Positions 1-19,433 are shown, counted from the stretch's first letter. The stretch: DNA of 64,000 nt from an uncultured Bacteroidales bacterium (GCA_964404735.1 CAYOLA010000041.1:1310-65309), one strand, 5' to 3'. Translations and numbers: made by a program. Notes: generated by a model from the letters alone, not told the origin.

Positions 1-24
1 ATAACAATAAAAAATATCAGAAAA

Positions 25-261
25 ATGGAAACAAAATTTGATCAAACACTCGACTGCAAGGGGCTGAGTTGCCCGATGCCGATGATGAAGCTTTCGAAAG
101 CCATCAAGGGCATGAACCAGGGTGAAGTACTTGAGATGCTGGGCACTGATCCGGGCACCAAGTCGGACCTGCCTAAATGGTGTGAAAAAACCGGGAACGA
201 GATTCTTCATGAGGAAGCGCTTGACGGTGGAGTTTTCAGGTATTTAATAAAAAAGAACTAG
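25..261 (+). CDS. TusA/SirA-family sulfurtransferase (sulfur carrier protein)
   Basis: 78 aa. LDCKGLSCPMPMMKL carries the Cys-Pro-x-Pro active-site signature of the TusA family. The ORF stops 9 nt before the YeeE-like gene. Confidence 0.9.
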   Translation: METKFDQTLDCKGLSCPMPMMKLSKAIKGMNQGEVLEMLGTDPGTKSDLPKWCEKTGNEILHEEALDGGVFRYLIKKN

Positions 262-270
262 GAGGTCGTG

Positions 271-1485
271 ATGTCTGAAAAGGCTAAAGATCCGGGTATT
301 TTCGGTCAACTCTTCGGAACATTTTTCGCGAAGCACTGGCCCGTATGGGTAGGCGGCATCGTGCTGGGCCTGCTCAACATCCTTTTATTTGCCATTCACA
401 GTCCGTGGGGTGCCAGCGGCGGGATCAACAACTGGGGCGAAAACCTGTTCCAGACTTTTGGTGTTTTTGGGATCAACGGCACTACGCCGGTTTGGCTCAG
501 CCTGTTTGGCATGCTTTGTCTGATGCTGGTGATCGGCTCATTTATGGGAGCCCTGCTTTCAAAGGAATTTGCGCTCAGGGTGCCGCCCAGGGGTGAGATG
601 GTAAAAGGGTTGATTGGCGGCGGCCTGATGGCATTGGGTGCCACCATTGGCCTTGGTTGCACCATCGGCTCATTTTTCAGTGGCGTACCAGCCTTGAGTG
701 GCGGTGCCATCATCTTCACCATTGGCCTTTTTGCCGGTGTGATCATTGCCCTGAAGTACCTGATATGGGAAATGGAAAAACATCCCGGCTTCAGCTCAGG
801 CAAAAGCTACACCTTTTTTGCCGTGAAACCCGGAAAGGGTTCATGGCAGGTTTACCTTGGCTGGTCGGTGCTCGCACTGGTACTGCTCATTGCCTGGCTT
901 TATTCAGGAAGAAACCCTGTAATGACCTGGTTTATTATCATCGGTCTTTTCATGGGGATGATCTCTCAGCGTTCGCGCTTTTGCATTGTCAAGGCCTTCC
1001 GCGATCCATTCATGACCGGCGAATCGGATGGTTCTACGGGTGTAATGGCAGGCCTGATGGTCACCCTGGTTGGCTTCACGGCCATCAAGTTTTTCGGGAT
1101 TGGTTTTGATGACCCCTCCCTGCGCTTGCGGGAGATGACGTGGATATTTCCGCATTTCTGGGGCCGCGCACTCATTGGCGGGCTGATCTTCGGCCTGGGC
1201 ATGACTGTAGCCGGCGGATGTGCTGTCGGAACTTTATGGCGCGTAGGCGAGGGCCAGGTAAAACTCTGGTTTGCAGCACTGGGCTTTATCCTGATATCGC
1301 CGCTGTCGAACAGGTTCATCGTACCGCTGATCAACGACATTTTTCCGCAAAACATGCGTTTCAGGGCATTTCTACCAGACTATATCGGCTATGCCGGCGC
1401 CTTTGCACTGGTGGTAGCCCTTATATTATTATGGTATTGGTTTGTGAAATGGAATGAAAAAACCGGAAGATTTACCGCTTACTAA
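271..1485 (+). CDS. YeeE/YedE-family sulfur (thiosulfate) transport membrane protein
   Basis: About 404-aa polytopic Gly-rich membrane ORF with conserved Cys-containing segments GLGCTIGSF, SRFCIV and AGGCAVGTLW, typical of YeeE/TsuA-type transporters. An SD-like GGAGG lies at 261-265. GTG at 268 is an alternative start. Confidence 0.85.
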   Translation: MSEKAKDPGIFGQLFGTFFAKHWPVWVGGIVLGLLNILLFAIHSPWGASGGINNWGENLFQTFGVFGINGTTPVWLSLFGMLCLMLVIGSFMGALLSKEFALRVPPRGEMVKGLIGGGLMALGATIGLGCTIGSFFSGVPALSGGAIIFTIGLFAGVIIALKYLIWEMEKHPGFSSGKSYTFFAVKPGKGSWQVYLGWSVLALVLLIAWLYSGRNPVMTWFIIIGLFMGMISQRSRFCIVKAFRDPFMTGESDGSTGVMAGLMVTLVGFTAIKFFGIGFDDPSLRLREMTWIFPHFWGRALIGGLIFGLGMTVAGGCAVGTLWRVGEGQVKLWFAALGFILISPLSNRFIVPLINDIFPQNMRFRAFLPDYIGYAGAFALVVALILLWYWFVKWNEKTGRFTAY

Positions 1486-1498
1486 AATCATATCACCC

Positions 1499-1987
1499 AT
1501 GAAAGCAAAAACCTATTATCCAGCAATCATTTTTGCGGTCGCACTGCTCATCTCATCATGCAACGCCATTTATGAAGAAGGCGAAGAGCTTGCAATGGCA
1601 CATCAATCCCTGGTCACTGAAATTACAGCCGACGAGCTGAAGAGCAAGGTCGAAAACGGGGAAAACTTTCTCCTGCTCGACGTACGGCAGTCATCAGAAT
1701 ACGAACAAGCCTCCATCCCGGGCGCGTTGAACATCCCCCGCGGCCTGCTCGAATTCAGGATCCGCGATGATAATTTCTGGGAAGAGGAGTTCATGTACAC
1801 GCCCGAAAATGATGAAGAAATAATTGTTTACTGCAAGCTGGGATACCGTGGCATTTTATCGGCCATGGCACTGCGGCAACTCGGATTCACAAATGTCAGG
1901 AACCTGGCCGGCGGCATCGTCAGCTGGGATCCCGACATTGAACAGGTCACTCCCAAAAACAAAGGCGGCGGCGGATGTGGAGGCTGA
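1499..1987 (+). CDS. Exported single-domain rhodanese lipoprotein with C-terminal GGGGCGG tail
   Basis: Lipobox-like signal peptide (AVALLISSC) if the start is ATG 1499; the track start 1454 would overlap yeeE by 32 nt. The rhodanese fold has active-site loop YCKLGYRG. The protein ends ...KNKGGGGCGG-stop (1964-1984). Confidence 0.85.
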   Translation: MKAKTYYPAIIFAVALLISSCNAIYEEGEELAMAHQSLVTEITADELKSKVENGENFLLLDVRQSSEYEQASIPGALNIPRGLLEFRIRDDNFWEEEFMYTPENDEEIIVYCKLGYRGILSAMALRQLGFTNVRNLAGGIVSWDPDIEQVTPKNKGGGGCGG

Positions 1988-2044
1988 GAAAACTTAAAAA
2001 TGTATCAATCAATATATTCTATTAATAACTAAAACTAAGACGAA

Positions 2045-3013
2045 ATGAAAAAATTTGCAATTTACCTGCTCGCGCTGATGCTGATCCCGGCATTTGTTTT
2101 TACTGCCTGCAAAAAAAGCGATGACGACGAAGAAACCTTCAACGCACAAAAAGCCCTTACCGAATATCTGGTGGCACAGGACATGGACATCAACAAGATC
2201 CTCGAAGGATTTGTGATGATGCCCCCCGACGATGGCAATGTAAGTGACCGTCACGTGATCGATATCCGTTCGGCCGATGACTTTGGCGCCGGACATATTG
2301 AGGGTGCTGTGAATGTTCCTTTAAGCAATATCCTCACCGAGGCAGCCAATGCCACAAAACCCATACTGGTGGCTTGCTACACCGGACAAACAGCCACTTA
2401 TGCCGTTAGTCTGCTGCGCCTTTCGGGTTATGCCGATGCCAAAGCCCTGAAATGGGGAATGAGCTCATGGCATACAGACTTCGCCAACAATGCCAAGGGG
2501 TGGAATGGAAAAACCGGTGACATTGCCGAGGGACACGCCAACTGGACCTACAATGTGGCCCCTGCCAACCTTACCTACAACGCTCCCACGTTTACAAGTA
2601 CCAGCACCGACCCCGCCGAGATCCTTAATGCACGCATACAAACCGTTATTGCCGACGGATTCAAAACCGTTACGCCTGACGACGTACTGGCCAACCCCGG
2701 CGACTTCTTTATCAACAACTACTTTTCGGAAGCCGATTACCTGGGTTTCGGACACATCAACGGTGCCAAAAGGATACAGCCCATGCTTGTTGGCGAAGGA
2801 CAGGTCAACTACAATGATGCATCCACCAAAGTGGTTACCTACTGCTACACCGGGCAAACCTCCGCTGCCATTACCTCCTACATGAGGGTGATCGGTTATG
2901 ATGCCTACAGTATGGTGTTCGGGATGAATAAACTTTATCATTCAAATACCGCATGGGTACAGAATAAATGGGATGCCGCTATTTCGAAGGACCTTCCCTA
3001 TGTGACCAACTAA
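2045..3013 (+). CDS. Tandem-rhodanese lipoprotein (both domains retain the active-site Cys)
   Basis: Signal peptide with lipobox FVFTAC followed by KKSDDDEE. There are two rhodanese domains, each with an identical CYTGQT loop (2375-2392 and 2843-2860). Confidence 0.85.
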   Translation: MKKFAIYLLALMLIPAFVFTACKKSDDDEETFNAQKALTEYLVAQDMDINKILEGFVMMPPDDGNVSDRHVIDIRSADDFGAGHIEGAVNVPLSNILTEAANATKPILVACYTGQTATYAVSLLRLSGYADAKALKWGMSSWHTDFANNAKGWNGKTGDIAEGHANWTYNVAPANLTYNAPTFTSTSTDPAEILNARIQTVIADGFKTVTPDDVLANPGDFFINNYFSEADYLGFGHINGAKRIQPMLVGEGQVNYNDASTKVVTYCYTGQTSAAITSYMRVIGYDAYSMVFGMNKLYHSNTAWVQNKWDAAISKDLPYVTN

Positions 3014-3046
3014 TCAGACAAATATTTAACAACAAAAAGAACAAAA

Positions 3047-4060
3047 ATGAAAAGGTTTTTCATTATCACCTTGTCGGTACTGCTGCTAGCAGGAAACCAC
3101 ACTATAAAGGCCCAGGGGTGCGGCGACGGGCCCTCCGGAGAAGGAGTGGAAGTTTTCGGTTTCCTGCAGGGGCAGTATGAGGCATTGTTTGAAGACGAAA
3201 CCAAGAACAGTTTCACCTTCGAAAGGGCACGAATCGGTGTACAGGGAGCAATCCCCTATGACTTTTCCTATTACGTGGTTGTGGAACTCAGCCCGTTTAT
3301 TTCACCAAATCCCTATCTGCTCGATGCTTTTATCACGTATAGCCGTTTCGACTTTGCCAGGTTATCGGTGGGTTCTTTCAAAACCCCCTTCGGCCTCGAA
3401 GTAAACACCCCCTGCAACGGGATGATGACGGTATACCGTTCAACGGCAACCCTGCAGATGGTAGCTCCATTCAGAGACCTCGGTATGGTATTCATGGGTG
3501 GCAACAAGGACACCTGGTGGCAGTACCAGCTCGGCATCATGAATGGCAGCGGACTTGGCCGTTTCGACAACAACAAAAAGAAGGACATTGTCGGACGCGT
3601 GCTCGTAAAGCCTTTCGATTTCGTACAGGTGGGAGGCAGTTTCCGCTATGGTTATCCTTCCTACAACAACAATAAAGACTCACGCACCACCTACGGAGGC
3701 GAGCTGAAATTCAACTATAAGGGGATTACGCTCATGGGTGAGTACATCATGGACGAAGGCGACTATAACCGCGACCTCGGTGGCGGATGCGGCGGCGAAC
3801 TCCTTGCCCTTGGAAAAGAAAGAAGCGGCGGCTATGTTACGCTGGCATATCTCAGCAAATGGAACATCGAACCGGTGTTTAAATATGATTTCTTCGACTC
3901 GGGCAATGATCAGGATTATACCGAAAGCAATATGACCTTCGGGATAAACTACTATTTCAATGACTGGACCCGTTTGCAGGCCAATTACATTTACCGGGCC
4001 GAAGAACCGACCGACCTCGAAAACGACATGTTTGTCATTCAGGTCCAGGTCAAGTTTTAA
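3047..4060 (+). CDS. Outer-membrane beta-barrel porin (phosphate-selective porin O/P-like)
   Basis: Signal peptide ...HTIKA-QG. The sequence shows alternating amphipathic beta-strand pattern and is rich in aromatics and Gly, with a C-terminal ...VQVQVKF ending in Phe as in OMPs. FTFERARIGVQG resembles the porin O/P family N-terminus. An internal GGGCGG lies at 3779-3796. Confidence 0.7.
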   Translation: MKRFFIITLSVLLLAGNHTIKAQGCGDGPSGEGVEVFGFLQGQYEALFEDETKNSFTFERARIGVQGAIPYDFSYYVVVELSPFISPNPYLLDAFITYSRFDFARLSVGSFKTPFGLEVNTPCNGMMTVYRSTATLQMVAPFRDLGMVFMGGNKDTWWQYQLGIMNGSGLGRFDNNKKKDIVGRVLVKPFDFVQVGGSFRYGYPSYNNNKDSRTTYGGELKFNYKGITLMGEYIMDEGDYNRDLGGGCGGELLALGKERSGGYVTLAYLSKWNIEPVFKYDFFDSGNDQDYTESNMTFGINYYFNDWTRLQANYIYRAEEPTDLENDMFVIQVQVKF

Positions 4061-4072
4061 CCAATAAAAAGA

Positions 4073-4897
4073 ATGACCATGAAGTATCTATTGAAATCTA
4101 TCAGTTTCATCATGCTGGTGCTGCTTGCATCGGGCGTTCATGCGCAGTTCGATATCATTTCCGCCAAGGAAGCATCAAAAATGATCAAAAACGAAGGTGT
4201 GATCGTTGTTTCTACGCGCAATGCCGACGATTATGCAAAAGTCCACATTGATGGCGCCATCAACATCGAAATGAAATCGCTTTACAAGGAAGGCAGCATT
4301 GAGGGTTTGATCAAATCACCCGGGGATCTGACAAAGATCCTTGGAGAGAAAGGACTTGATCCTTCGGCAAGCATTATCATTTACGACAATGGCAAATATG
4401 TTAATGCCGGTTATCTTTACTGGATACTCGATTACCTGGGTTACCAGGATGTAAAGATCCTCGACGGGCATATGAGCGGTTGGCGCAATGCCCGCGGACC
4501 GGTTACCAAAACCCCTTACACCAGGCCGCCACTTGTCGTTACACCGAAGCTAAAACCGGAGATTTACGTCGACTACAACTACGTGAAAGGCAAGCTCAAC
4601 AATCCCGGAACCGTGCTGGTTGATGTACAGAGTCCCAAAGAATTCGGCGAAGGGCATATCAGCGGCGCGATTAATATGGAAAACAAAAACTTCTTTGACG
4701 AAGAAAGCAGCACCTTGAAATCGAAGGAAGAGATCGGAAAAGTGCTGGCCGAACATCAGATCGGCAAAGACAAGGAAGTGATCCTGTACTGCGCTTCCAG
4801 CGCCCGCGCGGGCACTGTTTACCTTGCCATGAAAGCGCTTGGCTACAGCAACCTCAAGCTTTATGAAGGAGGTTACAATGAATGGAAAACCAAATAA
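4073..4897 (+). CDS. Periplasmic two-domain rhodanese (thiosulfate sulfurtransferase-like)
   Basis: Type-I signal peptide (...SGVHA-QF). The N-terminal rhodanese domain lacks the Cys (IIIYDNGKY) and the C-terminal domain has the classical loop YCASSARAG. This is the classical inactive-plus-active tandem architecture. Confidence 0.85.
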   Translation: MTMKYLLKSISFIMLVLLASGVHAQFDIISAKEASKMIKNEGVIVVSTRNADDYAKVHIDGAINIEMKSLYKEGSIEGLIKSPGDLTKILGEKGLDPSASIIIYDNGKYVNAGYLYWILDYLGYQDVKILDGHMSGWRNARGPVTKTPYTRPPLVVTPKLKPEIYVDYNYVKGKLNNPGTVLVDVQSPKEFGEGHISGAINMENKNFFDEESSTLKSKEEIGKVLAEHQIGKDKEVILYCASSARAGTVYLAMKALGYSNLKLYEGGYNEWKTK

Positions 4898-4919
4898 ATT
4901 TAGCTAAACCCCGAAGAAA

Positions 4920-5423
4920 ATGAAAAAACTGAAGTATCTCTTATTTCTGCTTGCCCTGCCGGCATTGATGATCCGTTGCGGAAACAACGGACAGGAAACC
5001 TACGGGTCGGCCGATGAGCTGGTTACAAAGCAAAACAACGGATTTAAATACGTTTCGGCCGAAAAACTTCGGGAACTCATGAATGAACAGCTTCCCGGGA
5101 TTCGTGTGATCGATGTGCGGGAGCCTGAGGAATTTGAAAAAGGACACATTCCGGGAGCTGTTAACATTCCGCGGGGAGTATTGGAGTTCTCTGACCGGAT
5201 CAGCAACAGGCGCGAAAGTATCTTGCTATACTGTGATGATCAAAGCAGGTCGGTTTTGTCGGCCAATGCCCTGAAGATGCTCAAATACCGAAGGCTTGCC
5301 ATCCTTGAGGGTGGATTCGAGAAATGGGTCGGCAATTATCCCGGCATGATCGAGGAAGGCAATGGCGACCCGGTAGCTGAAGCCCCGGTAAAAAAAGAAA
5401 GTTCGGGCGGCTGCGGCGGTTGA
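4920..5423 (+). CDS. Exported single-domain rhodanese with C-terminal GGCGG tail
   Basis: N-terminal signal peptide (possible lipid-modified Cys20). The rhodanese domain (RVIDVREPEEFEKGHIPGAVNIP) has an unusually acidic loop YCDDQSRS. The protein ends ...KKESSGGCGG-stop (5406-5420). Confidence 0.85.
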   Translation: MKKLKYLLFLLALPALMIRCGNNGQETYGSADELVTKQNNGFKYVSAEKLRELMNEQLPGIRVIDVREPEEFEKGHIPGAVNIPRGVLEFSDRISNRRESILLYCDDQSRSVLSANALKMLKYRRLAILEGGFEKWVGNYPGMIEEGNGDPVAEAPVKKESSGGCGG

Positions 5424-5468
5424 TCGCAAAATTACAGAAGTATAAACAATTAAATAACAATTGGAATT

Positions 5469-5885
5469 ATGGCAGAAAAAATGTGTATCGGACTTTTTTC
5501 CGGTGGGGTTGACAAGCTCACTTATGCCGGTGTGGTGATCAGCGGCGCCGCCGCCGACGACATGGAAGTGGAAGTGTTTGTGCACCTTCAGGCCGCACAA
5601 TGGTTTGTAAAAGGCAACGAAAACAGGAAAGAATACCTGAGTGAGTCACCGGATAGCTTTGATGAATTTTCAAAAGCACTTGAAAGCACCAACAGTCCGT
5701 CATGGCTTGAATTTTTTGAAATGGCCAAAGAGATGACGGATGTGAAGGTATATGTATGCAGCCTTGCCGGAAAGATATGGGGCGGCAGCCGGGAAGAGGA
5801 CTTCATCGACATCGTCGACGGCATCATCGGCATCGGCGAATACATTGATGCTGCCAAGGATGCCGATGTACATTTTCTGATTTAA
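5469..5885 (+). CDS. DsrE/DsrF-like family sulfur-relay protein
   Basis: 138 aa with no signal peptide. The N-terminus CIGLFSGGVDKL..A.VISGAAA is of the DsrE-fold type, and a conserved Cys sits in VYVCSLAG. It is positioned between the rhodanese and TusA genes, as in known sulfur-relay clusters. Confidence 0.7.
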   Translation: MAEKMCIGLFSGGVDKLTYAGVVISGAAADDMEVEVFVHLQAAQWFVKGNENRKEYLSESPDSFDEFSKALESTNSPSWLEFFEMAKEMTDVKVYVCSLAGKIWGGSREEDFIDIVDGIIGIGEYIDAAKDADVHFLI

Positions 5886-5922
5886 CATTCACAAATTTTT
5901 AAATTAATAAGGAGAAATAAAA

Positions 5923-6174
5923 ATGACAACAGAAGAACTAAAAGCACTGGAAATAGCCAAGCAGGTTGATGCCAGGGGAACGGCATGTCCGGGTCCGCTG
6001 CTGGCTGCAAAAAAAGCCATCGGAGAGATCGGATCGGGTGATATTATGGAAGTATTATCGGCCGACGCCGGAACGAAAAGAGACATCCCCAAGTGGGCCG
6101 GAAAGAAAGGCCATGAATACCTTGGCGATCTTGAGGAAGACGGCTATTTTAAGTTGTATTTAAAGAAAAACTAG
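5923..6174 (+). CDS. TusA/SirA-family sulfurtransferase (second copy)
   Basis: 83 aa. VDARGTACPGPLLAAKKA carries the Cys-Pro-x-Pro TusA signature. An SD-like AAGGAG lies at 5909-5914. Confidence 0.9.
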   Translation: MTTEELKALEIAKQVDARGTACPGPLLAAKKAIGEIGSGDIMEVLSADAGTKRDIPKWAGKKGHEYLGDLEEDGYFKLYLKKN

Positions 6175-6178
6175 GAAA

Positions 6179-6589
6179 ATGTCAGAATCCAGGCAAAGCA
6201 CTGCTCCGAAGGTTCTGGTATTTTCAACCGAAAAGATCTCAGACCCCGCCATTGACATGGCGGGGCTGTTAAAACTGCATTATCCGCCAACAGTTTACGT
6301 GATCACTGTTCCATGTTCAAGCGCTGTGAAGCCCAAATGGATCATCCGCGCTTTCGAGAAGGGTTACGACGGGGTATTCATTGCCGCCGACGGCACCGAC
6401 TGCCCTTACAGCGAATCCTGTACCGAACGTACTTCCGATGTGATTGCGCAAACACATATCATTATGAAGGAAAAAGGAATAGACCCTTCGAAACTGAAAA
6501 TGGCGGCAATTTGCTCGGTATGCGCCGAACCTTTTGTCAAGCACATGAACAACTTTGTTGATGAGCTTGCCAGTAAAAAGAATAATTAA
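6179..6589 (+). CDS. MvhD/FlpD-like protein (hydrogenase iron-sulfur subunit family), stand-alone
   Basis: 136 aa. YVITVPCSSAVKPKWIIRAFEKGYDGVFIAADGTDCPY matches the core of the methyl-viologen-reducing hydrogenase delta-subunit fold. It lies 23 nt upstream of the HdrA-like genes. Confidence 0.7.
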   Translation: MSESRQSTAPKVLVFSTEKISDPAIDMAGLLKLHYPPTVYVITVPCSSAVKPKWIIRAFEKGYDGVFIAADGTDCPYSESCTERTSDVIAQTHIIMKEKGIDPSKLKMAAICSVCAEPFVKHMNNFVDELASKKNN

Positions 6590-6612
6590 ATCACCATTCC
6601 GAAAATACACCA

Positions 6613-7917
6613 ATGCCAGATACAACCGTAAACAACCATCAGTACGATGCACTCGTTATCGGAGGCGGTATTGCGGGAGAAGAGTCAGCACTGAACCTTG
6701 CCAATATGGGCTACCGTGTCGTGCTGGTGGAAAAAGACCTTTCGCTGGGCGGTAAGATGATACATCTCAGCAAGGTATTCCCCACCCTCGACTGTTCAGC
6801 CTGCATTACCACACCAAAAGTTTCAGAAACCGCCAGACATCCCAACATAAGGATATACACATACAGCGAGGTAAAAGACATCAGGAAAAACGGCAACGGC
6901 CATTTTACGGCCGATATTCACAAAAAACCGCGCTACGTTATCGAGGATGAATGCACGGGTTGTGAGGCCTGTGAAAAGGTTTGCCCGGTAATTGTGGAAG
7001 ACCAGTATCAGTATGACCTGGTTGGACGCAAAGCGGCTTATATTCCCTTCAGCATTGCCAATCCGAGGATTGCAGCCATCGACATTGAGAACTGCATCCT
7101 TTGCGGAGCCTGTGAAAAGGCCTGCATGGCCGAAGCCATTGATTTCGCGCAAAAGCCGGAAACGATACCCATCACCTTTAAGGCTGTGATCGTTGCTACA
7201 GGATATAACCTGGTTGAGGCCGGCAAACTGCCAAACTATGGCTTCGACCAATATAAAAACGTGGTAACGGCCATGCAAATGGAACGGCAACTGGTTCCCA
7301 CACGGCCCTTTAACACGGTTTTACGGCCCAAAGACGGGAAGATGCCCGACAATATTGCCTACGTGCTGTGCGCCGGATCGAGGGATGCCACCATCGGCAA
7401 TCCCATTTGCTCGCAGATCTGTTGTATGTATTCCATTAAGCAGGCCCAGTTGCTCATGGGAGCACTGCCAATGGCCGATGTTACCATATATTATTTACAC
7501 ATCAGGGCATTTGGCAAGGGTTTTAATGAATTTTACCAGCAGGCCCGCGGCATGGGTGTTGAATTTGTAAAAGGGAAGATTGCCAAAATCACCGAAAAGG
7601 AAAACGGGAACCTGATCCTCCGCTACGAGGATGTTTACAGCGGAAAAGTGAGCGAAGCCGAACACGACCTCGTGGTTTTGTCGACCGGCATCCTGCCGGG
7701 TGATGGCATTACAAATCTGTTTTCCGGTGAAAAACCGGAAACCGATGCCTTTGATTACGTAAAACAAGTGGATGAACTGGAAAACCCCTCACGGACGAGT
7801 ATACCCGGTGTTTTTGTAGCCGGCACGGCCGCGGGGCCAATGGACATCCCCGACTCCATCCTTTCCGCCGGGGCAGCCTCATCCGAAACAGCCAGTTATA
7901 TCAGGAACATGTCATGA
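6613..7917 (+). CDS. HdrA-family FAD/FeS flavoprotein, QmoA-like (CoB-CoM heterodisulfide reductase subunit A family)
   Basis: 434 aa. Features are the FAD dinucleotide motif ALVIGGGIAGEESA, FPTLDCSACI, an inserted 2x[4Fe-4S] ferredoxin (CTGCEACEKVCP and CILCGACEKAC) and CSQICC. Size and architecture match QmoA. The stop overlaps the next start (ATGA at 7914-7917). Confidence 0.8.
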   Translation: MPDTTVNNHQYDALVIGGGIAGEESALNLANMGYRVVLVEKDLSLGGKMIHLSKVFPTLDCSACITTPKVSETARHPNIRIYTYSEVKDIRKNGNGHFTADIHKKPRYVIEDECTGCEACEKVCPVIVEDQYQYDLVGRKAAYIPFSIANPRIAAIDIENCILCGACEKACMAEAIDFAQKPETIPITFKAVIVATGYNLVEAGKLPNYGFDQYKNVVTAMQMERQLVPTRPFNTVLRPKDGKMPDNIAYVLCAGSRDATIGNPICSQICCMYSIKQAQLLMGALPMADVTIYYLHIRAFGKGFNEFYQQARGMGVEFVKGKIAKITEKENGNLILRYEDVYSGKVSEAEHDLVVLSTGILPGDGITNLFSGEKPETDAFDYVKQVDELENPSRTSIPGVFVAGTAAGPMDIPDSILSAGAASSETASYIRNMS

Positions 7918-9839
7918 AACAAAAAATAGGAGTATATATTTGTCACTGCGGGTCGAACATCTCCGACCACATCGATGTAGAAAAGGTAAAGCAAAGTGTG
8001 GAAAAGCAGGAAGGCGTGTATGTGGCAGGCACCACCATGTTTGCCTGTTCCGACTCCGCCCAGAAAGACATCGAGGACGACATCAAAACCAAGGGGCTCG
8101 ATGCCATCGTAATCGCTTCATGTTCCCCGAAGCTGCATCTGCAAACCTTCAGGAATGTAGCCATTCGCGGCGGGTTAAACCCATACAACTATGTACAGGT
8201 AAATATCCGTGAACAGGGTTCGTGGGCCCATGGCGACAAGCCCGTGGAGGCAACCGAAAAGGCGATCCAGCTTGTGAAGGCGGGTATTGCCAGGGTAGCA
8301 GAGTCGAGCGAACTGGAAGCCGTGAAGATCCCTGCCGAAAACAAGGTAGCCGTTATTGGTGCAGGCGTGGCCGGGCTCAGGGCCGCCATCGAACTGGCCA
8401 ATATGGGCACCGAAGTGATCCTGGTCGAAAAGGAACATTTTATCGGCGGAAGGACTTCCCAGTGGGGCCAGCTCTTTACCTCAGAGCAAACAGGGGAGGA
8501 AATCGTGAGCAAAATGTTTGCCAAAGTCATGGCGCATCCAAAAATCACCCTGTACACCGGCACCACGGTAACGGGGAAGTCGGGCGGCGTTGGCAATTAC
8601 AAACTTCAACTAACGCTTAGCCCGCGCTTCATCACTCAAAAATGCGACCCCGAAGGATTCGACCGGGCCATTGAGGTTTGTCCGGTAGAAGTGGAAGACG
8701 AATTCAGCTTCGGACTTGGCAAGCGAAAGGCCATCTATAAAAATTATTCTTCTGAGTTTCCGCAGTTCCCTGCCATCGACAACGCAAACTGCACCCGATG
8801 CGGAAAGTGCCTTGAAGTTTGCAACAATATCGACCTTGAGCAGCAGGAGGAAAAGCTAGTGATCGAAGTCGGATCCATACTCCTGTGCACCGGCTTCGAC
8901 CCTTATGAGCCTCAGGAAGGCGAGTATGGTTACAAGACCATCGACTCCGTCATAACCTTGCCGCAATTCAAACGGCTGATCGCCACACAGCAGGAAAAGC
9001 TCGTATACAACGGCAATGAAATAAAAACCGCAGGGTTTATCTATTGTGTCGGGAGCATGCAAATAAATGGTGAAAACAAATATTGTTCCCGGTTTTGCTG
9101 CACCTCGGCCATTCATGCCGCCCTGGAAGTGAATCAGCATTTCGGCATAAAATCCTATCACCTGAACAGGGGGATACGCACCTACGGCAAACAGGAGATG
9201 CTGTATACACAATCATCGCTCAACGGCGACGTCTACATCGCCTTCGACCCGGAGGAGGAGCCCGTGATCAGCAAAAACGGAAAGGGAACCATGATCAAGG
9301 TAACCGACCTGCTCACTGCCGGCGAAGAACTTGACATACCCGTCGACCTGGTTGTGCTGGTTACGGGAATGGTTCCGCGTGCGGATCAGTCGATCGCGGA
9401 AATCCTGAAAGTTCCCGTAGGGCGTGATAAATTCTTCAACGAAATACATCCAAAACTGCGACCGGTAGAAACCGTTATCGACGGGGTGCAGATCGCCGGA
9501 GCATGCCAGTCGCCGAAAAATATTACCGAATCACTGAAATCATCGCTATCGGCTGCATCAAAGGCAAATTCCCTGGTAAGCAAGGGAGAGATCGAACTGG
9601 AACCCACCCTGGCCATGATACACAAAAATGTATGTACCTGGTGCGGAAAATGTGAGGAAGTATGCCCGTTTGGAGCCATTTTGAAACTTGATAATGATGG
9701 CAGGGAAGTTGCCGAGGTGAACAAGGCAAACTGTAAAGGTTGCGGCATTTGCCTGCCGGTTTGCCCTGTCGACGCCATTGACCTGATCGGCTACACCAAC
9801 CGGGAGATCGAAAGCATGATCGACGCACTGGTGGAATAA
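7914..9839 (+). CDS. HdrA-family FAD/FeS flavoprotein, QmoB-like but lacking the fused MvhD domain
   Basis: 641 aa. The N-terminal domain is HdrA/QmoB-type (IGVYICHCGSNISDHI...ASCSPKLH). It also has FAD motif VAVIGAGVAGLRAA, CSRFCC, and a C-terminal 2x[4Fe-4S] ferredoxin (CTWCGKCEEVCP and CKGCGICLPVCP). Confidence 0.8.
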   Translation: MKQKIGVYICHCGSNISDHIDVEKVKQSVEKQEGVYVAGTTMFACSDSAQKDIEDDIKTKGLDAIVIASCSPKLHLQTFRNVAIRGGLNPYNYVQVNIREQGSWAHGDKPVEATEKAIQLVKAGIARVAESSELEAVKIPAENKVAVIGAGVAGLRAAIELANMGTEVILVEKEHFIGGRTSQWGQLFTSEQTGEEIVSKMFAKVMAHPKITLYTGTTVTGKSGGVGNYKLQLTLSPRFITQKCDPEGFDRAIEVCPVEVEDEFSFGLGKRKAIYKNYSSEFPQFPAIDNANCTRCGKCLEVCNNIDLEQQEEKLVIEVGSILLCTGFDPYEPQEGEYGYKTIDSVITLPQFKRLIATQQEKLVYNGNEIKTAGFIYCVGSMQINGENKYCSRFCCTSAIHAALEVNQHFGIKSYHLNRGIRTYGKQEMLYTQSSLNGDVYIAFDPEEEPVISKNGKGTMIKVTDLLTAGEELDIPVDLVVLVTGMVPRADQSIAEILKVPVGRDKFFNEIHPKLRPVETVIDGVQIAGACQSPKNITESLKSSLSAASKANSLVSKGEIELEPTLAMIHKNVCTWCGKCEEVCPFGAILKLDNDGREVAEVNKANCKGCGICLPVCPVDAIDLIGYTNREIESMIDALVE

Positions 9840-9863
9840 TAAACAAAGCAAAAAAAACTGCAT

Positions 9864-10166
9864 ATGACCACTGCAAAAAAAAATACGATCAAGATCATCA
9901 AGGAACAACGCACAGTGAGCGAACAGGCCAAAGAAAGAAGAAAGACATACGCCGACATCCGGAAGCAATTGCTGAAGGCACTGGAAGAGAGGCCAATGAC
10001 CATCCCGGAACTGGCAGGAGAAACAGGCCTTTCCGCTCATGAGGTTACCTATTACCTTATGACACTTCGCAAATACGGAGAGGTGGTCACCGGCGAAGTT
10101 GATGATGATGACGAATACTATTATTACGAACTCAAAAACAAGCAATTGAATAATGGCAAAGATTAA
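9864..10166 (+). CDS. Small winged-helix-like protein with acidic/Tyr-rich tail (unknown function)
   Basis: 100 aa. A basic N-terminus is followed by RPMTIPELAGETGLSAHEVTYYLMTLRKYGEV (helix-turn-helix-like) and then DDDDEYYYYE (10101-10130). Its last 14 nt overlap the start of the QmoC-like gene. Confidence 0.5.
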   Translation: MTTAKKNTIKIIKEQRTVSEQAKERRKTYADIRKQLLKALEERPMTIPELAGETGLSAHEVTYYLMTLRKYGEVVTGEVDDDDEYYYYELKNKQLNNGKD

Positions 10167-11217
10167 TCCTGAATTTTTACCGGAATTAAAAAAATACGGC
10201 GGCATCGACTTCAGTGCGTGTTATAATTGCGGCAACTGCACGGCCATTTGTTCCCTGTCGACCAAAGACCATTCATTCCCCCGCATGATGGTAAGGGCAA
10301 GCGTTGTGGGGCTCGAAGACAAGGTAAGCAGCTCACTCGATCCATGGCTTTGCTATTATTGCGGTGATTGCAGCACTTATTGTCCGCGCGAAGCCAACCC
10401 CGGTGAACTCATGATGGCCCTGCGCCGCTGGCTCACGGCAAAGTACGACTGGACCGGCTTATCTGGCCTGCTGTACAAATACCTGCCGCTGACCATATTT
10501 GCCTTTGTTGCCACGGCACTGGCAGTGATCGGCATTGCTGCCGTTTATGATTTCAACATGGCTGAGATCATGCATTTCGGGCATCAGTTTGAATTCATTG
10601 CCATACTTGCCGTGTTTGCCATCATCCTACTGCCCAACATTGCACGGATGTGGTACTTTTTGATATACAAGCCCAGGAGGAAGGTTCCGGCCTCAAGCTA
10701 TCTGAAAAGCTTCGGGGCACTCTTCGTCCACATGTTCACACAAAAGAGGACCCTTGGCTGCGACGACAGCCGGCTGCGATGGTTTGAGCACCTGGTGCTG
10801 GTGATCGGCTACCTTACCCTTTTGTTCACCACAGTGGTGCTCGACTGGTTCCGCTCAGACAAGCTGTTTGTCATCATCCTCGGCTATGTGGTGAGTGCGG
10901 TTGTTTTTACCGTAACCTTCGATTTTGTAAAGGGGAGGATAAAAAGAAAAAGTGAGATCAGCAAACACTCCAGGCCTTCCGACTGGTTATTTGTCATATG
11001 GTTGTTCCTGCTGGGTGTTACGGCTTTCTTCACCCGCGTGTTCATTGACCTGGGCATATTGCATGCGCATTTCTGGATGTATCTTTTCCATATGATCATT
11101 TTGGTGCAATGGGCTGTATTGATCGTTCCTTTCGGGAAATGGACGCACTTCCTTTACAGGTCGTTTGCCATGTACTTCGAAGAGGTGCTGCAGCCTAAAG
11201 CTGTTGCAAAAAAGTAA
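10153..11217 (+). CDS. QmoC/HdrE-DsrM-like membrane subunit (N-terminal 2x[4Fe-4S] domain plus heme-b type membrane domain)
   Basis: 354 aa. CYNCGNCTAIC and CYYCGDCSTYCP form an HdrC-like dicluster domain. About 6 hydrophobic helices follow, with His residues placed as in NarI/HdrE-type cytochrome b. Confidence 0.75.
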   Translation: MAKINPEFLPELKKYGGIDFSACYNCGNCTAICSLSTKDHSFPRMMVRASVVGLEDKVSSSLDPWLCYYCGDCSTYCPREANPGELMMALRRWLTAKYDWTGLSGLLYKYLPLTIFAFVATALAVIGIAAVYDFNMAEIMHFGHQFEFIAILAVFAIILLPNIARMWYFLIYKPRRKVPASSYLKSFGALFVHMFTQKRTLGCDDSRLRWFEHLVLVIGYLTLLFTTVVLDWFRSDKLFVIILGYVVSAVVFTVTFDFVKGRIKRKSEISKHSRPSDWLFVIWLFLLGVTAFFTRVFIDLGILHAHFWMYLFHMIILVQWAVLIVPFGKWTHFLYRSFAMYFEEVLQPKAVAKK

Positions 11218-11326
11218 TATCCGGCCGAAGGCTTCACCTGCTTTTTAGCCCTGGAAAAAAGACCATATTCAGGGTTTAACACAAGCATTCCGTTTTAAAT
11301 ATTGTTAACGGAAGCGTGGATATTTT

Positions 11327-11334
11327 TATCTTTG
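11327..11334 (+). promoter_or_regulatory. Candidate Bacteroidota -7 box (TATCTTTG) upstream of mrpA
   Basis: It matches TAnnTTTG, but it lies only 7 nt from the ATG, which would imply a nearly leaderless mRNA. Confidence 0.3.
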
Positions 11335-11341
11335 GAACTCC

Positions 11342-13651
11342 ATGAAACTGCTGTACCTCTTATCGGTCCTTTTCGGGCTGGCCATTGCCGCGCCCTTTGT
11401 GAACCTGCACCTTCGCAGGTACAGCGGTTGGATACTGTCGGTTGTGCCCCTGCTCATTTTTGCCTATTTCATCACCCTGTTGCCTGATATTTCAGCGGGT
11501 GCCGTCATTATCGAAAAGTACAGCTGGATATTCTATCCGGATATCAGCCTGAGTTTCCGGCTCGATGGACTCAGCATGCTTTTCGCCCTGTTGGTGACCG
11601 GTATTGGCGGGCTTATTTTAATCTATGCAGGTTATTATATGCGTTCCTATGAGAAGACAAGCCGTTTTTTTGGTTACCTCGTCTTTTTCATGGCCGCCAT
11701 GCTGGGCCTGGTCCTTTCATCCAACCTCATCTGCCTTTTTGTCTTCTGGGAGCTCACCAGCATCAGTTCTTTTCTTTTGATCGGTTTCAAGTACGAAAAG
11801 GCGGCGGCAAGGGAAGCGGCCTTGCAGGCCCTGCTCATCACAGGCTTTGGAGGACTGGCGCTGCTGGCCGGTTTTGTTCTTTTATCCATTCCCTACGGTT
11901 CCTTCGAGCTGGAGGTGATCATGTCGAACCCACAGGTGCTGGCCAACAGTGACCTCTTTGTGCCGGTGCTGATCCTGATCCTGATCGGTGCTTTCACCAA
12001 ATCTGCCATCTTCCCCTTCCACTTCTGGCTACCCGGCGCCATGCAGGCCCCATCCCCGGTAAGTGCCTTCCTGCACTCAGCTACCATGGTGAAGGCCGGC
12101 ATATTCCTGCTTGCACGTTTGAATCCGCTCATGGACAGCTCAGAATTATGGTTCTATACCCTTTCGGTATTCGGTGCTGTTACCATGTTTGCCGGGGCCT
12201 GGCTTTCGATCTCACAAAACGATATCAAGAAGGTGCTTGCCTACACCACTGTCAGTGCCCTGGGCACCCTGGTATTGCTGATCGGTACAAACACCACCTA
12301 CTCCATGAAAGCCTTCATCATCTTTCTACTGGTGCACGCCCTTTACAAGGCCACCCTGTTCATGATGGCGGGCAATATCGAAAAAAAGACCGGCACCCGC
12401 GATATCAGGCAACTGGGACAGTTGCACCGATACATGCCGGTGGCTGCCCTGATCATGATCCTGGCGCTGCTGTCGATGGCCGGACTGCCACCCATGCTGG
12501 GCTTTATCGGAAAGGAACTCATATATGAAGCGAAGATCAATGCCCCGGGCGCTGCAAACATTGTTTTGTTGCTGGGCTTTTTTGCAAACATATTTATGGT
12601 TTTTGTATCGGTAAGGCTGGCCATTGATGTTTTTTGGGGCAAGAATGCCGTTTATGCCAGGAAACCTTACGAACCCGACATCTCGCTGCTCACCGGCCCG
12701 GCCGTACTGGTATTTCTGAGCCTCTTCCTGGGTCTTTTCCCCGACCTCATCGAAAACAGCCTTGCCACACCTGCCGTGCTGGCCATCAGCCCCGAAGCGG
12801 GTTCGGTCGACCTCAGAATATGGCATGGCTTCAACCTTGTATTGCTTTTGAGCGCATTCACCATCGCTATCGGCGTATTGCTCTATATTTATAAAGAATG
12901 GACACTGGCACTGGCAGGATACATCACACTTCGTTATTTCCGGACCCGGCTGTCGAAGGGATTCTTCAATATGATCAGGGGATTTATCTCCCTGACGAAG
13001 AAAAAGACCAGCTTTATTCAACATGGTTATCACCGTTTTTATCTGATGACCATTTTTATTGCTACCTCCATCCTGGTATGGTACATGCTGCTGCGTATTC
13101 CCTTCCATGATTTCCGGCATGAATCCCTTCAGGCGGTACCGTTCTTTTATTTTGCCATTGCAGGTCTTATTATCATTGCTGCAATTTTCACAGTCACGGC
13201 CCGTTCGCGGCTGATCGCACTGATCTCCATCGGCCTGGTCAGTTTCGGAATTTCAGTGATCTTTATCACCTTCAGCGGTGTTGACCTGGCCATTACCATG
13301 ATCATGGTTGAAACGCTGATGGTAATTCTGGGTGCGATGGTGGTATATCATCTGCCCAAATATTTGAACTTTTCAAAAAGGGGAAGCCGGGTGCGCGATG
13401 GCCTGGTTGCCCTTGTTTTCGGCGGATTCATGACACTGCTGGTGATCAAGGCAGGTGGTGTGGCGCCTGATGACAAGATCTCGGATTTTTTCAGTTCGAA
13501 CAGTTACGGACTGGCTTACGGTAAAAACATTGTTAATGTTATACTGGTTGATTTCAGGGCACTCGATACCATGGGAGAGATTTTGGTACTTTCTCTGGCG
13601 GCCATTGGCATATATGCATTATTAAAGGTAAAACTTAAACCGGGCGAATAG
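11342..13651 (+). CDS. mrpA: Na+/H+ (monovalent cation/H+) antiporter subunit A, Mrp/Mnh type
   Basis: 769-aa polytopic protein. FHFWLPGAMQAPSPVSAFLHSATMVKAG is a NuoL/MrpA-type motif, and the C-terminal extension is typical of MrpA. Confidence 0.9.
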   Translation: MKLLYLLSVLFGLAIAAPFVNLHLRRYSGWILSVVPLLIFAYFITLLPDISAGAVIIEKYSWIFYPDISLSFRLDGLSMLFALLVTGIGGLILIYAGYYMRSYEKTSRFFGYLVFFMAAMLGLVLSSNLICLFVFWELTSISSFLLIGFKYEKAAAREAALQALLITGFGGLALLAGFVLLSIPYGSFELEVIMSNPQVLANSDLFVPVLILILIGAFTKSAIFPFHFWLPGAMQAPSPVSAFLHSATMVKAGIFLLARLNPLMDSSELWFYTLSVFGAVTMFAGAWLSISQNDIKKVLAYTTVSALGTLVLLIGTNTTYSMKAFIIFLLVHALYKATLFMMAGNIEKKTGTRDIRQLGQLHRYMPVAALIMILALLSMAGLPPMLGFIGKELIYEAKINAPGAANIVLLLGFFANIFMVFVSVRLAIDVFWGKNAVYARKPYEPDISLLTGPAVLVFLSLFLGLFPDLIENSLATPAVLAISPEAGSVDLRIWHGFNLVLLLSAFTIAIGVLLYIYKEWTLALAGYITLRYFRTRLSKGFFNMIRGFISLTKKKTSFIQHGYHRFYLMTIFIATSILVWYMLLRIPFHDFRHESLQAVPFFYFAIAGLIIIAAIFTVTARSRLIALISIGLVSFGISVIFITFSGVDLAITMIMVETLMVILGAMVVYHLPKYLNFSKRGSRVRDGLVALVFGGFMTLLVIKAGGVAPDDKISDFFSSNSYGLAYGKNIVNVILVDFRALDTMGEILVLSLAAIGIYALLKVKLKPGE

Positions 13652-13652
13652 G

Positions 13653-14072
13653 ATGCGTTCAGAGATACTTAAAATAGCGGCCATTCACTTAAAGTACGTA
13701 TTGCTTGTGCTGAGCCTGATCGTGCTGGTCAGGGGGCATAATCATCCCGGGGGCGGTTTTATTGGGGGATTGCTGGCAGGATCCGCCTTTGTGCTTTACG
13801 GAATGGCCTTCGGTGCTGAACAGGCAAAGAAGCAAAGGCTTGTAAAGCCATTTTTCAGCATTGCCCTGGGTCTTTTACTCAGCCTGGGCAGCGGTCTGAT
13901 CTCCCTTATTTATAAGCCGGCCGCTTTCCTGCAGGGTGTTTGGGTAACGGTGCCCCTGCCATGGCAGGCATCGCTAAAGCTGGGGACGCCACTGCTTTTC
14001 GATGCAGGGATATTCCTTGTGGTGGCGGGAATGCTGGTATTGGTCATGCTTTCAATCATGGAGGAAGGATAA
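13653..14072 (+). CDS. mrpB: Na+/H+ antiporter subunit B
   Basis: 139 aa with 4 TM helices. It carries the RGHNHPGGGFIGGL motif of MnhB. Confidence 0.85.
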   Translation: MRSEILKIAAIHLKYVLLVLSLIVLVRGHNHPGGGFIGGLLAGSAFVLYGMAFGAEQAKKQRLVKPFFSIALGLLLSLGSGLISLIYKPAAFLQGVWVTVPLPWQASLKLGTPLLFDAGIFLVVAGMLVLVMLSIMEEG

Positions 14073-14073
14073 T

Positions 14074-15899: not shown

Positions 15900-15905
15900 A
15901 AGAAG

Positions 15906-19250: not shown

Positions 19251-19433
19251 TTCTCTATAATTGCTGACCAAATTTATAAAAATGGATCAAGCAGACCAAA
19301 AATCCGGTCATAAATCCCGGAATCCAGTGCAAATAATATCAGCTGAGTGAAAAAAAAGCACCATAAATGGCAGACACACACGACCTAAAAAAATAAAATA
19401 TAAATATTTTGTATGATTTTTAATTAATATATG

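Follow-up and report, generated by a model that had tools for sequence, protein, structure and literature searches.

In the sHdr system, sulfur reaches an Hdr-like complex through a series of TusA, DsrE-family and rhodanese proteins (PMC11094781), and in the YTD cluster a yedE-related gene, tusA and a dsrE-like gene stand together with two or three conserved proteins that form DsrEFH type II (PMC13490349). Another kind of carrier is SoxY, the hallmark of whose arm is a C-terminal GGCGG with a sulfur-binding cysteine (PMC6067878). For the Qmo complex, a 2023 survey describes, in the passages that bear on it, a "type II" that is nearer hdrA than bacterial type I qmoAB and that is also found in organisms without Apr or Dsr, its role there being left open (PMC10504309). 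Here we analyse a 14-gene block at the start of a 64,000-nucleotide (nt) stretch of DNA, hereafter the window, from an uncultured Bacteroidales bacterium (GCA_964404735.1 CAYOLA010000041.1:1310-65309). An original prediction, made from the sequence of the window, had read this block as a self-contained sulfur route from the outer membrane to the quinone pool, ending in a Qmo-like complex. The 2023 survey does not mention the Bacteroidota, nor do its relevant passages mention this cluster.

The block, which spans positions 25-11217 with all 14 genes on the + strand, consists of a conserved core and an accessory uptake module that separates the regulator from the other core genes. The core comprises a divergent Crp regulator and the genes for a DsrE-family protein, TusA, MvhD, a short HdrA, a full-length HdrA, a small winged-helix protein and a QmoC-like subunit. 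Related loci were obtained by a scan of species-representative genomes with the QmoC-like protein, which gave at least 574 loci (species-level genomes); the best 80 were kept, all of them from Bacteroidota, including Prolixibacteraceae, Tenuifilaceae, Lentimicrobiaceae, Paludibacter and Rikenellaceae. The 14 window proteins were mapped onto these 80 loci, flanks of 10 kb around the core were examined and the neighbouring open reading frames (ORFs) were clustered. The order TusA-MvhD-HdrA(short)-HdrA(long)-winged helix-QmoC was the same in every locus with room, that is, with enough sequence to show the genes concerned. TusA lies directly before mvhD in every locus, and a DsrE-family gene precedes the core in 62 of the 80. 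There are two DsrE types, one of about 138 amino acids (aa), as here, and one of about 185 aa (full DrsE_2, 1.2e-50), and many loci have both. The comparison of gene neighbourhoods across genomes that had been suggested with the original prediction showed that the arrangement is not due to chance: one and the same gene order was met again in independent genomes whose proteins are 35-80% identical. The core is also found in a second phylum.

The seven-gene uptake module is present in about 10 of roughly 60 informative loci. Its genes are collinear with the core only in the loci that we labelled L010, L013, L014, L025, L026, L029, L033, L034 and L036, and part of the module lies upstream of the core and divergent from it in L030, L050 and L087. 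The uptake genes have thus joined the core repeatedly, in collinear and divergent arrangements. The single 14-gene block first proposed is contiguous in this organism, but it is composite.

TusA and DsrE are the only constant partners of the window-type module. Because they are its sole constant partners, we suggest that the complex acts on carrier-bound sulfur, and this is our strongest argument. Tentatively, and with somewhat less than even confidence, we prefer a reading in which sulfur is relayed as cysteine persulfide and the carrier-bound sulfane sulfur is finally reduced in a reaction linked to quinone and ferredoxin. The substrate that we infer would be sulfane sulfur in the form of S0, polysulfide or the sulfane atom of thiosulfate. 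A tandem rhodanese lipoprotein at the cell surface would take up this sulfur, the cysteine-bearing porin would admit it or hand it on, and three periplasmic rhodanese-type proteins, two of which are GGCGG-armed lipoproteins, would carry it to YeeE, which would move it over the inner membrane to the first TusA. The DsrE protein and the second TusA would then hold it as a protein persulfide and present it to the complex of MvhD, short HdrA, long HdrA, winged-helix protein and QmoC, which would reduce the carrier-bound sulfane sulfur to sulfide. Electrons could come from menaquinol via QmoC and from reduced ferredoxin via the full-length HdrA, and also from NAD(P)H in variants with a GltD-type insert. 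By textbook potentials, menaquinol alone is too weak a reductant for sulfur, so the full-length HdrA would offer a confurcating route. Flavin-based confurcation, the mode that we envisage, has been proposed for Qmo with adenosine-5'-phosphosulfate (APS) reductase. The outcome would be an electron sink for a fermenting anaerobe.

Table 1. Features of the 14-gene block. Domain calls are from Pfam and NCBIfam profiles (curated cutoffs), with PDB matches for HdrA and HdrC.
Feature	Position	Strand	Evidence
End of the regulatory region	1..24	+	Right half of the Crp-type palindrome TGTTA-N6-TAACA at bases 2-6 (TAACA)
TusA-family carrier, 78 aa	25..261	+	PF01206 3.5e-25; CPxP cysteine, motif SCPMP
YeeE/YedE-family inner-membrane transporter, 404 aa	271..1485	+	PF04143 (Sulf_transp) 9.5e-51
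Single-domain rhodanese lipoprotein	1499..1987	+	PF00581 1.3e-21; CKLGYR loop, C-terminal GGCGG
Tandem rhodanese lipoprotein	2045..3013	+	PF00581, two stretches; two CYTGQT loops
Outer-membrane porin, OprO/P type	3047..4060	+	PF07396 (Porin_O_P) 6.2e-14
Periplasmic tandem rhodanese	4073..4897	+	PF00581 1.7e-39; signal-peptidase-I signal
Rhodanese-fold lipoprotein with GGCGG tail	4920..5423	+	PF00581 1.9e-20
DsrE-family protein, 138 aa	5469..5885	+	PF13686 3.2e-9, PF02635 1.5e-7; conserved Cys97; first core gene
Second TusA-family carrier, 83 aa	5923..6174	+	PF01206 2e-21; invariant Cys22; always directly upstream of the mvhD-flavoprotein genes
MvhD/FlpD-type iron-sulfur adaptor, 136 aa	6179..6589	+	PF02662 2.1e-28; five conserved cysteines
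Short HdrA-type flavoprotein, 434 aa	6613..7917	+	Methanogen HdrA residues 145-561, 1.7e-110, 372 bits; NCBIfam HdrA2 139-559
Full-length HdrA-type flavoprotein, 641 aa	7914..9839	+	5odc_A 4.9e-131, 441 bits; NCBIfam HdrA2 1-641
Small winged-helix protein, 100 aa	9864..10166	+	PF01022 1.3e-5 (weak, ArsR-type winged helix-turn-helix); Lys-rich N-terminus, no cysteine
QmoC-like membrane subunit	10153..11217	+	NF038018 qmoC 1.8e-43, full length, 149.4 bits vs cutoff 300

The profile run on the 14 ORFs agreed with all the domain identities that had been assigned beforehand (Table 1). The cofactor sites of the core appear intact, as judged for QmoC and MvhD by the conservation of the ligands and for the long HdrA by its four-domain alignment only. 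The N-terminus of the QmoC-like protein is HdrC-like, with two [4Fe-4S] sites formed by eight cysteines invariant among 80 sequences (PDB HdrC match, 1.5e-14). Its membrane part has four invariant histidines (144, 193, 213 and 332) and an invariant Cys203 in the same 80 sequences, and the histidines are consistent with two haems b. The structural model shows six long confident helices; its fold matches are weak (mycobacterial EtfD, E 0.28; NarI, E about 2), which fits the family and is not decisive.

The two flavoproteins form an unequal pair. The short HdrA has the FAD and inserted ferredoxin domains and lacks the N- and C-terminal ones, and it keeps the cysteines of an FPTLDCSAC motif. Residues 3-627 of the long HdrA align with 5odc_A 4-637 through the N-terminal, FAD, inserted ferredoxin and C-terminal ferredoxin domains, but at the position of the motif the protein reads LFTSEQTGEE, both cysteines being lost. 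The same asymmetry between short and long protein is found in the Anaerolineae. The motif aligns with the Cys/Sec-197 region of methanogen HdrA, where the cysteine presumably ligates a cluster of the partner protomer. If this ligation holds, one cluster of the unequal pair could be short of a ligand, which we offer as a lead only. It is conceivable, though we consider it rather doubtful, that HdrA/HdrA/MvhD/winged helix/QmoC is a new sulfur reductase or oxidoreductase that acts on a TusA/DsrE persulfide without a CCG domain, molybdopterin or sirohaem, perhaps at this ligand-short cluster, with quinone and ferredoxin coupled by bifurcation or confurcation, and that, in certain lineages, its sulfur arrives by covalent transfer between cysteines across the outer membrane, by way of a porin with cysteines and rhodanese lipoproteins with a SoxY-type arm.

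The winged-helix gene is present in all loci with room, and its Anaerolineae counterpart is 39% identical. The protein could be a subunit, an adaptor or a regulator; persulfide sensing by it was ruled out, since it contains no cysteine at all. The second TusA is the only one of the two TusA proteins to match TsuB (27.6 vs cutoff 147.5).

Variants of the two flavoproteins were met among the related loci. In ten of them (L013 5070-7778, L072 4865-7666, L017, L038, L046, L047, L050, L068, L082 and L083), the short HdrA is one ORF of ~930 aa. Matches were split there by ~1.4 kb, and an intron or intein was considered and rejected, the frame being single and open with an inserted module. The insert of ~460 aa contains Fer4_20 and Pyr_redox_2 and is an NAD(P)H module of the GltD/NfnB/SudA type, which suggests that NAD(P)H would be a direct redox partner in these ten variants. 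Translated-search (tblastn) matches to the long HdrA were also split, in L022, L039, L052, L056 and L066; selenocysteine was rejected, as there is no in-frame stop, and the long HdrA of these five loci is without the inserted ferredoxin domain.

We also looked at relatives of the QmoC-like protein outside the 80 loci. When homologues were clustered at 50%, all Bacteroidales members of the clade collapsed to one representative; the ten nearest representatives scored 141-201 bits, the next full-length relatives were 33-42% identical and none reached the curated QmoC score. Contexts were looked up for seven of these homologues (L090-L096). Four of them, from sources named Chloroflexota, Anaerolineae or Anaerolineales (L092, L094, L095 and L096), carry a regulator (Crp or ArsR-type) and, in the same order as in the window, TusA, FlpD, an HdrA of ~445 aa, an HdrA of ~686 aa, a small protein of ~100 aa and a QmoC-like protein; a DsrE-like protein is encoded next, together with a rhodanese in L092 and with TusA and YeeE in L096. 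Identity between the window and L094 was 55% for the short HdrA, 42% for the long HdrA, 39% for QmoC, 58% for TusA, 39% for the small protein and 31% for MvhD. In L094 (4227-4511) and L095 (4114-4419) the upstream regulator is of the ArsR type (HTH_5/HTH_20) in place of Crp, and these upstream proteins of the Anaerolineae have no clearly conserved cysteine pair.

The other three contexts join the same kind of complex to other enzymes. In Desulfofundulus thermobenzoicus (L093) the order is sat, aprB, aprA, qmoA, qmoB (with fused FlpD), a CCG protein and the QmoC-like gene. L090 encodes a CCG protein, a QmoC-like protein, two HdrA, two FlpD, FrhB/FdhB and a molybdopterin enzyme of the formate-dehydrogenase type, and L091 (Aminicenantes) an HdrA-like protein, a QmoC-like protein, FlpD and a NiFe hydrogenase; these two sets would be quinone-anchored versions, in bacteria, of the Fdh-Hdr and Mvh-Hdr complexes. 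All together, the gene contexts indicate that the HdrA/MvhD/QmoC set is a quinone-linked electron hub paired in evolution with different partner enzymes. The name Qmo-like holds for the architecture of the window's complex but not for membership in Qmo: MvhD is a separate protein, and with methanogen HdrA the short and long flavoproteins give 372 and 441 bits, compared with 226 and 112 bits (35% and 27% identity) for QmoA and QmoB of Desulfofundulus. On this comparison of scores only, the pair would fit type II as described in the relevant part of the 2023 survey (PMC10504309).

The uptake module shows further conserved cysteines. The first TusA stays paired with YeeE in all loci that have the module. 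YeeE carries cysteines in three conserved motifs, GLGC, SRFC and AGGC (Cys130, Cys238 and Cys317). Its assignment to the family stood, but the start first given, at 268, is a GTG one codon upstream of the ATG at 271, and public assemblies contain only the product of the latter. For the first rhodanese the likeliest start is 1499 (1454 being the alternative), which yields a 162-aa lipoprotein precursor, as called on other contigs; its lipobox, its catalytic cysteine in the CxxGxR loop and its GGCGG tail are kept in 10 of 10 orthologues. In the first tandem rhodanese the lipobox cysteine is followed by lysine and an acidic run (CKKSDDDEE), kept in 9 of 9 orthologues, and such a run resembles the known export signal of Bacteroidota lipoproteins. 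By this analogy the protein is probably surface-exposed.

The porin has three cysteines that are invariant among 10 aligned orthologues: Cys25 at the mature N-terminus (QGC), Cys123 (NTPC) and Cys248 in a glycine-rich loop, GGGC[GD]G (here GGGCGG). Cysteines are rare in outer-membrane barrels. The second tandem rhodanese has an inactive N-domain, with Asp for Cys, and an active loop, CASSAR, in its C-domain. In the second single-domain rhodanese, tail Cys165 and lipobox Cys20 are invariant, and the catalytic cysteine is replaced by serine in 18 of 22 orthologues. The AlphaFold model has a core confidence score (pLDDT) of about 90 and values below 50 for residues 152-167, so that the tail is predicted to be flexible. 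This protein looks like a carrier, with the tail as its conserved feature. All 18 locus orthologues keep the GGCG[GD] tail, as do 23 of the 25 closest database relatives; only these 25, of the 120 best database relatives, have the tailed-rhodanese architecture, and all come from Bacteroidales/Marinilabiliales-type sources. The family is thus a small one. We found no paper, in the literature searched, that links GGCGG to rhodaneses in the sense of a carrier arm. Together, the envelope features suggest a covalent hand-over of sulfane sulfur from cysteine to cysteine, in which the order of the relay would be as proposed above.

Several observations weigh against reductive cleavage by this complex, and we give them here with the alternatives that they favour. 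The block contains no known persulfide- or disulfide-reducing site, be it a CCG domain, a molybdopterin site or a CxxC flavoprotein of the CoA-disulfide-reductase type. Moreover, 7 of the 80 loci (L024, L056, L061, L063, L069, L086 and L089) have HdrC-like and HdrB-like (CCG) genes no more than 10 kb from the core; their products are of ~227 aa and ~355 aa (PF02754, 1.5e-8), respectively, and in L024 they directly follow QmoC. These genes (e.g. L024 1795-3585; L069 11774-13563) often belong to a larger set with DUF134, NifX-like (PF02579), methyltransferase and small redox genes. A CCG gene also lies directly before QmoC in L093 and in the formate-dehydrogenase-linked L090, at the place where the window has the winged-helix gene.

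The route might accordingly be the same but incomplete here, with cleavage of the S-S bond left to a protein whose gene lies elsewhere, for example an HdrB/HdrC-like CCG protein or a reductase like anaerobic sulfite reductase, and the complex would only supply this protein with electrons. In methanogens, indeed, MvhD is the adaptor that joins HdrA to a separate enzyme. Against such a partner, in about 90% of the related loci the 10-kb flanks contain no CCG gene, there is none in the 64-kb window or in the 4.9 kb upstream, none lies near the core of the Anaerolineae versions, and TusA and DsrE are the only universally linked partners. We regard a partner encoded elsewhere as improbable on balance but as a serious rival, and the other alternatives as weaker ones. 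As for the outer membrane-to-quinone route of the original prediction, it gained from the GGCGG tails, the porin cysteines, the probable surface lipoprotein and the two-phylum core, but that it is self-contained was not established, given the CCG genes near the core in the seven loci.

The direction of electron flow, too, cannot be read from the sequence. Were it oxidative, sulfide or carrier-held sulfane sulfur would be oxidised, with electrons passing to menaquinone via QmoC and possibly to ferredoxin by bifurcation, and sulfane sulfur would be exported via YeeE, the tailed rhodaneses and the porin, for detoxification or energy gain in sulfidic habitats. The full-length HdrA is a bifurcating flavoprotein in methanogens, and the GGCGG arm is known from the oxidative Sox pathway. 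TusA/DsrE/rhodanese sets are best known from sulfur oxidisers (PMC11094781). Moreover, the ArsR-type regulators of two Anaerolineae loci belong to a family that includes, according to the part of the source that bears on it, sulfane-sulfur-responsive repressors of sulfur oxidation (PMC12423496), but these two lack a clearly conserved cysteine pair. Oxidation could not pass S0, since no oxygen-adding sulfur enzyme (Soe, Sor, Apr, sHdr-LbpA or rDsr) is present, and a single enzyme, sulfide:quinone oxidoreductase, already does the step from sulfide to S0. The carrier groups are also fermentative anaerobes in their physiology. We thus think an oxidative role unlikely.

Searched against NCBIfam, YeeE, the porin and one rhodanese each had its top hit in a family linked to selenium or tellurium, and none of these hits reached its cutoff. 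The porin matches ExtI (7.6e-10, 38.1 bits vs cutoff 150) and YeeE matches YedE/FdhT (3.8e-39, 135 bits vs 350), ahead of the TsuA models (95.6 vs 400 and 73.5 vs 645). The second tandem rhodanese matches ExtH (4.8e-13, 48.9 bits vs 200) in addition to a 3-mercaptopyruvate sulfurtransferase-like family (1.6e-23), both below cutoff, and the TusA proteins secondarily match YedF. These matches would fit an ExtH/ExtI- and YedE-YedF-like system that handles an oxyanion of selenium or tellurium, or selenium destined for a cofactor or tRNA. However, the scores lie far under the cutoffs, and neither selD, selA nor any other selenium-utilisation gene was found in the window. Four rhodaneses and a dedicated porin suggest a bulk substrate, and the GGCGG arm and the DsrE proteins are sulfur-carrier features. 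Of the readings considered here we give this one the least credence.

The last question is whether the block works as one unit. As originally described, the 14 ORFs are co-directional with gaps of at most 57 nt and two overlaps, and the ORF list and a recount of the gaps bore this out: for the most likely starts the distances are, in order, 9, 13, 57, 33, 12, 22, 45, 37, 4, 23, -4, 24 and -14 nt, the overlaps being an ATGA at 7914-7917 (-4) and 14 nt at 10153-10166, and the next gene begins past a 124-nt gap. The DNA upstream of the window was taken from other contigs of the same organism, up to 4.9 kb beyond position 1 (L001); the exact TusA and YeeE proteins of the window are found on 21-24 other contigs, and the whole block is also present on the uncultured Bacteroidales contig L010 with 86-98% protein identity. 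In the window's organism the full operator, TGTTA-ATAAAA-TAACA, lies just ahead of the first TusA, its left half outside the window. A divergent Crp/Fnr regulator is present in 52 of the 80 loci, and of 48 intergenic regions between regulator and operon, 27 contain TGTGA-N6-TCACA and 9 contain TGTTA-N6-TAACA. Palindrome and regulator precede the first gene here and precede DsrE in core-only loci, and no Crp-type site was found inside the block. As a single regulator and operator stand in front, with no internal site, short gaps and two overlaps, the block would be one Crp-controlled unit; the placement of the site fits this but does not prove co-transcription. The Crp-type palindromes are often double (L001 1335-1603 and 47 other regions), and the proximal one adjoins a TTTG that resembles the Bacteroidota -7 promoter box.

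On the reductive reading, the block would be co-transcribed and would be induced by sulfur compounds. Scans of positions 1-11800 for sigma-70 promoters and terminators gave no better result than shuffled sequence, such scans being uninformative for Bacteroidota. Two unrelated units might simply be adjacent, one for assimilatory or cofactor sulfur uptake and the other a ferredoxin/NAD(P)H:menaquinone oxidoreductase with TusA and DsrE serving cluster or cofactor maturation or regulation. Most core-bearing loci are without the uptake module, the core has no recognisable sulfur-reducing site, and the NAD(P)H module in the short HdrA of 10 loci fits a general redox-balancing enzyme. Against chance adjacency, the uptake genes came to lie with the core in separate events, with differing arrangements and in both phyla, the linkage of TusA to mvhD is seen in every locus and that of DsrE in 62, and one regulator and operator lie ahead of the whole block. 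All together, we find it very improbable that the two halves are unrelated, and the persulfide relay with terminal reduction remains our preferred reading.

The original prediction had also stated that Apr, Sat, Dsr, CCG, LbpA, Sox and molybdoenzyme genes are absent from the window, and a scan of the ORFs agreed. PF02754 (CCG/HdrB) had no match among the 14 proteins or the other window ORFs, and the Pfam scan found no sHdrB1/B2, LbpA or Sox proteins in the window. As had been advised, we inspected the DNA upstream of position 1, which on other contigs encodes the divergent Crp/Fnr regulator (231 aa), then an 885-aa FGE-sulfatase-domain protein and then a Fib_succ_major protein, and no aprBA or sat. 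A canonical Qmo system with aprBA/sat just upstream was thus ruled out; aprBA/sat were found neither in the window nor in this upstream DNA, and no such cluster recurs in the flanks of the 80 loci.

The rest of the window (11.3-64 kb), in which all ORFs of at least 120 aa were scanned, holds housekeeping genes, an Mrp antiporter and a few proteins without match. Its products include elongation factor G, a DEAD helicase, an acyl-CoA ligase, a type II topoisomerase subunit, transketolase, a fusion of glycoside hydrolase family 3 and beta-lactamase, a cystathionine-type lyase, glycine dehydrogenase, an H+-pyrophosphatase, thymidylate synthase and dihydrofolate reductase. The Mrp-type cation/proton antiporter operon (11342-16901) looks complete, with a fused MrpA/B-like protein of 769 aa, MnhB, and 4L-like, MrpD-like and MnhG proteins. 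A functional link of this operon to the block, by analogy to the membrane-bound sulfane reductase of Pyrococcus, was considered and rejected, as its adjacency to the core is not conserved in other loci. Six ORFs of 152-513 aa had no Pfam match at the thresholds used: 17730-19271 (-), 41068-41910 (+), 56910-57749 (+), 59795-61057 (-), 26046-26504 (+) and 28324-28815 (+). Fib_succ_major-domain proteins occur both in the window, at 42593-43930 (-), and upstream of the block on other contigs (L005 422-1180).

We found neither a description nor an experimental test of this cluster in the literature when Qmo, HdrA or MvhD was searched with TusA, DsrE, YeeE or rhodanese, and with Bacteroidota, Anaerolineae and GGCGG. 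That the combination is undescribed, as first supposed, therefore stands for the cluster but needs a qualification, as Qmo without Apr or Dsr had been noted as "type II" in the passages cited from the 2023 survey (PMC10504309). The component families are likewise known, as is a TusA/DsrE/rhodanese cascade feeding an Hdr-like complex, in sHdr. Relative to the literature searched, what looks new is the association of a membrane-anchored, Qmo-like complex of the HdrA type with no constant partners other than TusA and DsrE, the wide occurrence of this core in Bacteroidales and Anaerolineae, the small winged-helix component, and an envelope relay with SoxY-type tails and a cysteine-bearing porin. 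There is a real chance that the complex is a new type of enzyme.

Key intermediates of sulfur cycling under anoxic conditions include elemental sulfur, polysulfide and thiosulfate, and their turnover is mostly credited to carriers of psr/phs, dsr, sox or shdr. The core is common in Bacteroidales and Anaerolineae of anoxic habitats, groups usually seen as plain fermenters. If it handles sulfane sulfur with coupling to quinone and ferredoxin, it would be a new enzyme type in sulfur metabolism, it would explain sulfide formation or sulfur tolerance in these groups, and it would supply the "type II Qmo without Apr", whose role is left open in the cited part of the 2023 survey, with a definite function. 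Bacteroidales and Anaerolineae are some of the fermenters most often met in anoxic sediments and digesters; should the core indeed act as a persulfide reductase, they would carry out an unrecognised cycling of zero-valent sulfur. In the uptake half, a cysteine porin with SoxY-armed, lipid-anchored rhodaneses would amount to a new means of bringing an insoluble or reactive compound across the Gram-negative envelope.

Compared with known systems, each half of the block has its own likenesses. An outer-membrane barrel encoded beside exported rhodanese-type proteins is also seen in the selenite/tellurite system ExtH/ExtI of Geobacter, where ExtH is a rhodanese-like lipoprotein, and a periplasmic rhodanese feeding a quinone-linked reductase in Wolinella, whose Sud protein is a polysulfide-sulfur transferase; unlike these, the window has no cytochromes and no molybdopterin polysulfide reductase, and its matches to them are weak and under cutoff. 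We know of no cysteine-bearing porin loops or GGCGG tails in the ExtH/ExtI or Sud systems. With YeeE/YeeD (TsuA/TsuB) the window shares a Sulf_transp protein with conserved cysteines beside a TusA with a CPxP cysteine, but its proteins fall below the TsuA, TsuB and YedE cutoffs and are encoded together with exported rhodaneses, a porin and the quinone-linked flavoprotein complex. Like the YTD cluster, it groups YeeE, TusA and DsrE-family genes, but without the extra small conserved proteins beside DsrE (DsrEFH type II). The C-terminal GGCGG, a single cysteine on a flexible periplasmic arm, recalls SoxYZ; here, however, the arm sits on a lipid-anchored rhodanese fold (Rhodanese being the only Pfam domain), and SoxZ, SoxAX, SoxB and SoxCD are absent.

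On the side of the complex, sHdr-LbpA likewise has a TusA/DsrE/rhodanese cascade leading into an Hdr-like complex. In contrast to the window, however, sHdr is soluble and has the CCG protein sHdrB, LbpA and a short non-bifurcating sHdrA; sHdrB, LbpA and lipoate ligases are absent from the window, whose HdrA proteins match sHdrA (6tjr) only partially (1.6e-25 and 2.1e-37), far below methanogen HdrA. The four-domain HdrA, the MvhD adaptor and the HdrC-like cluster domain are those of methanogen MvhADG-HdrABC, but the catalytic HdrB (CCG) subunit and the hydrogenase are missing, the HdrA dimer is replaced by an unequal pair, and a membrane anchor is provided via a haem b domain. From Qmo, be it type I of sulfate reducers and green sulfur bacteria or the "type II" known in Ammonifex, Vulcanisaeta and Desulfofundulus, the window differs in the absence of linked aprBA/sat, in an MvhD that is a separate 136-aa protein encoded first and not fused as in Desulfofundulus QmoB, in flavoproteins nearer methanogen HdrA than QmoA/QmoB and a QmoC at half the NCBIfam cutoff, and in a winged-helix gene where relatives have a CCG protein, with TusA and DsrE as constant neighbours. 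It nevertheless shares with Qmo two HdrA-derived flavoproteins, one of them without the terminal domains, an MvhD module, and a membrane subunit that fuses an HdrC-like 2x[4Fe-4S] domain to a dihaem b part and is thus wired to quinone, this QmoC being 37% identical to the QmoC-like protein of the sat-aprBA-qmoAB cluster (L093).

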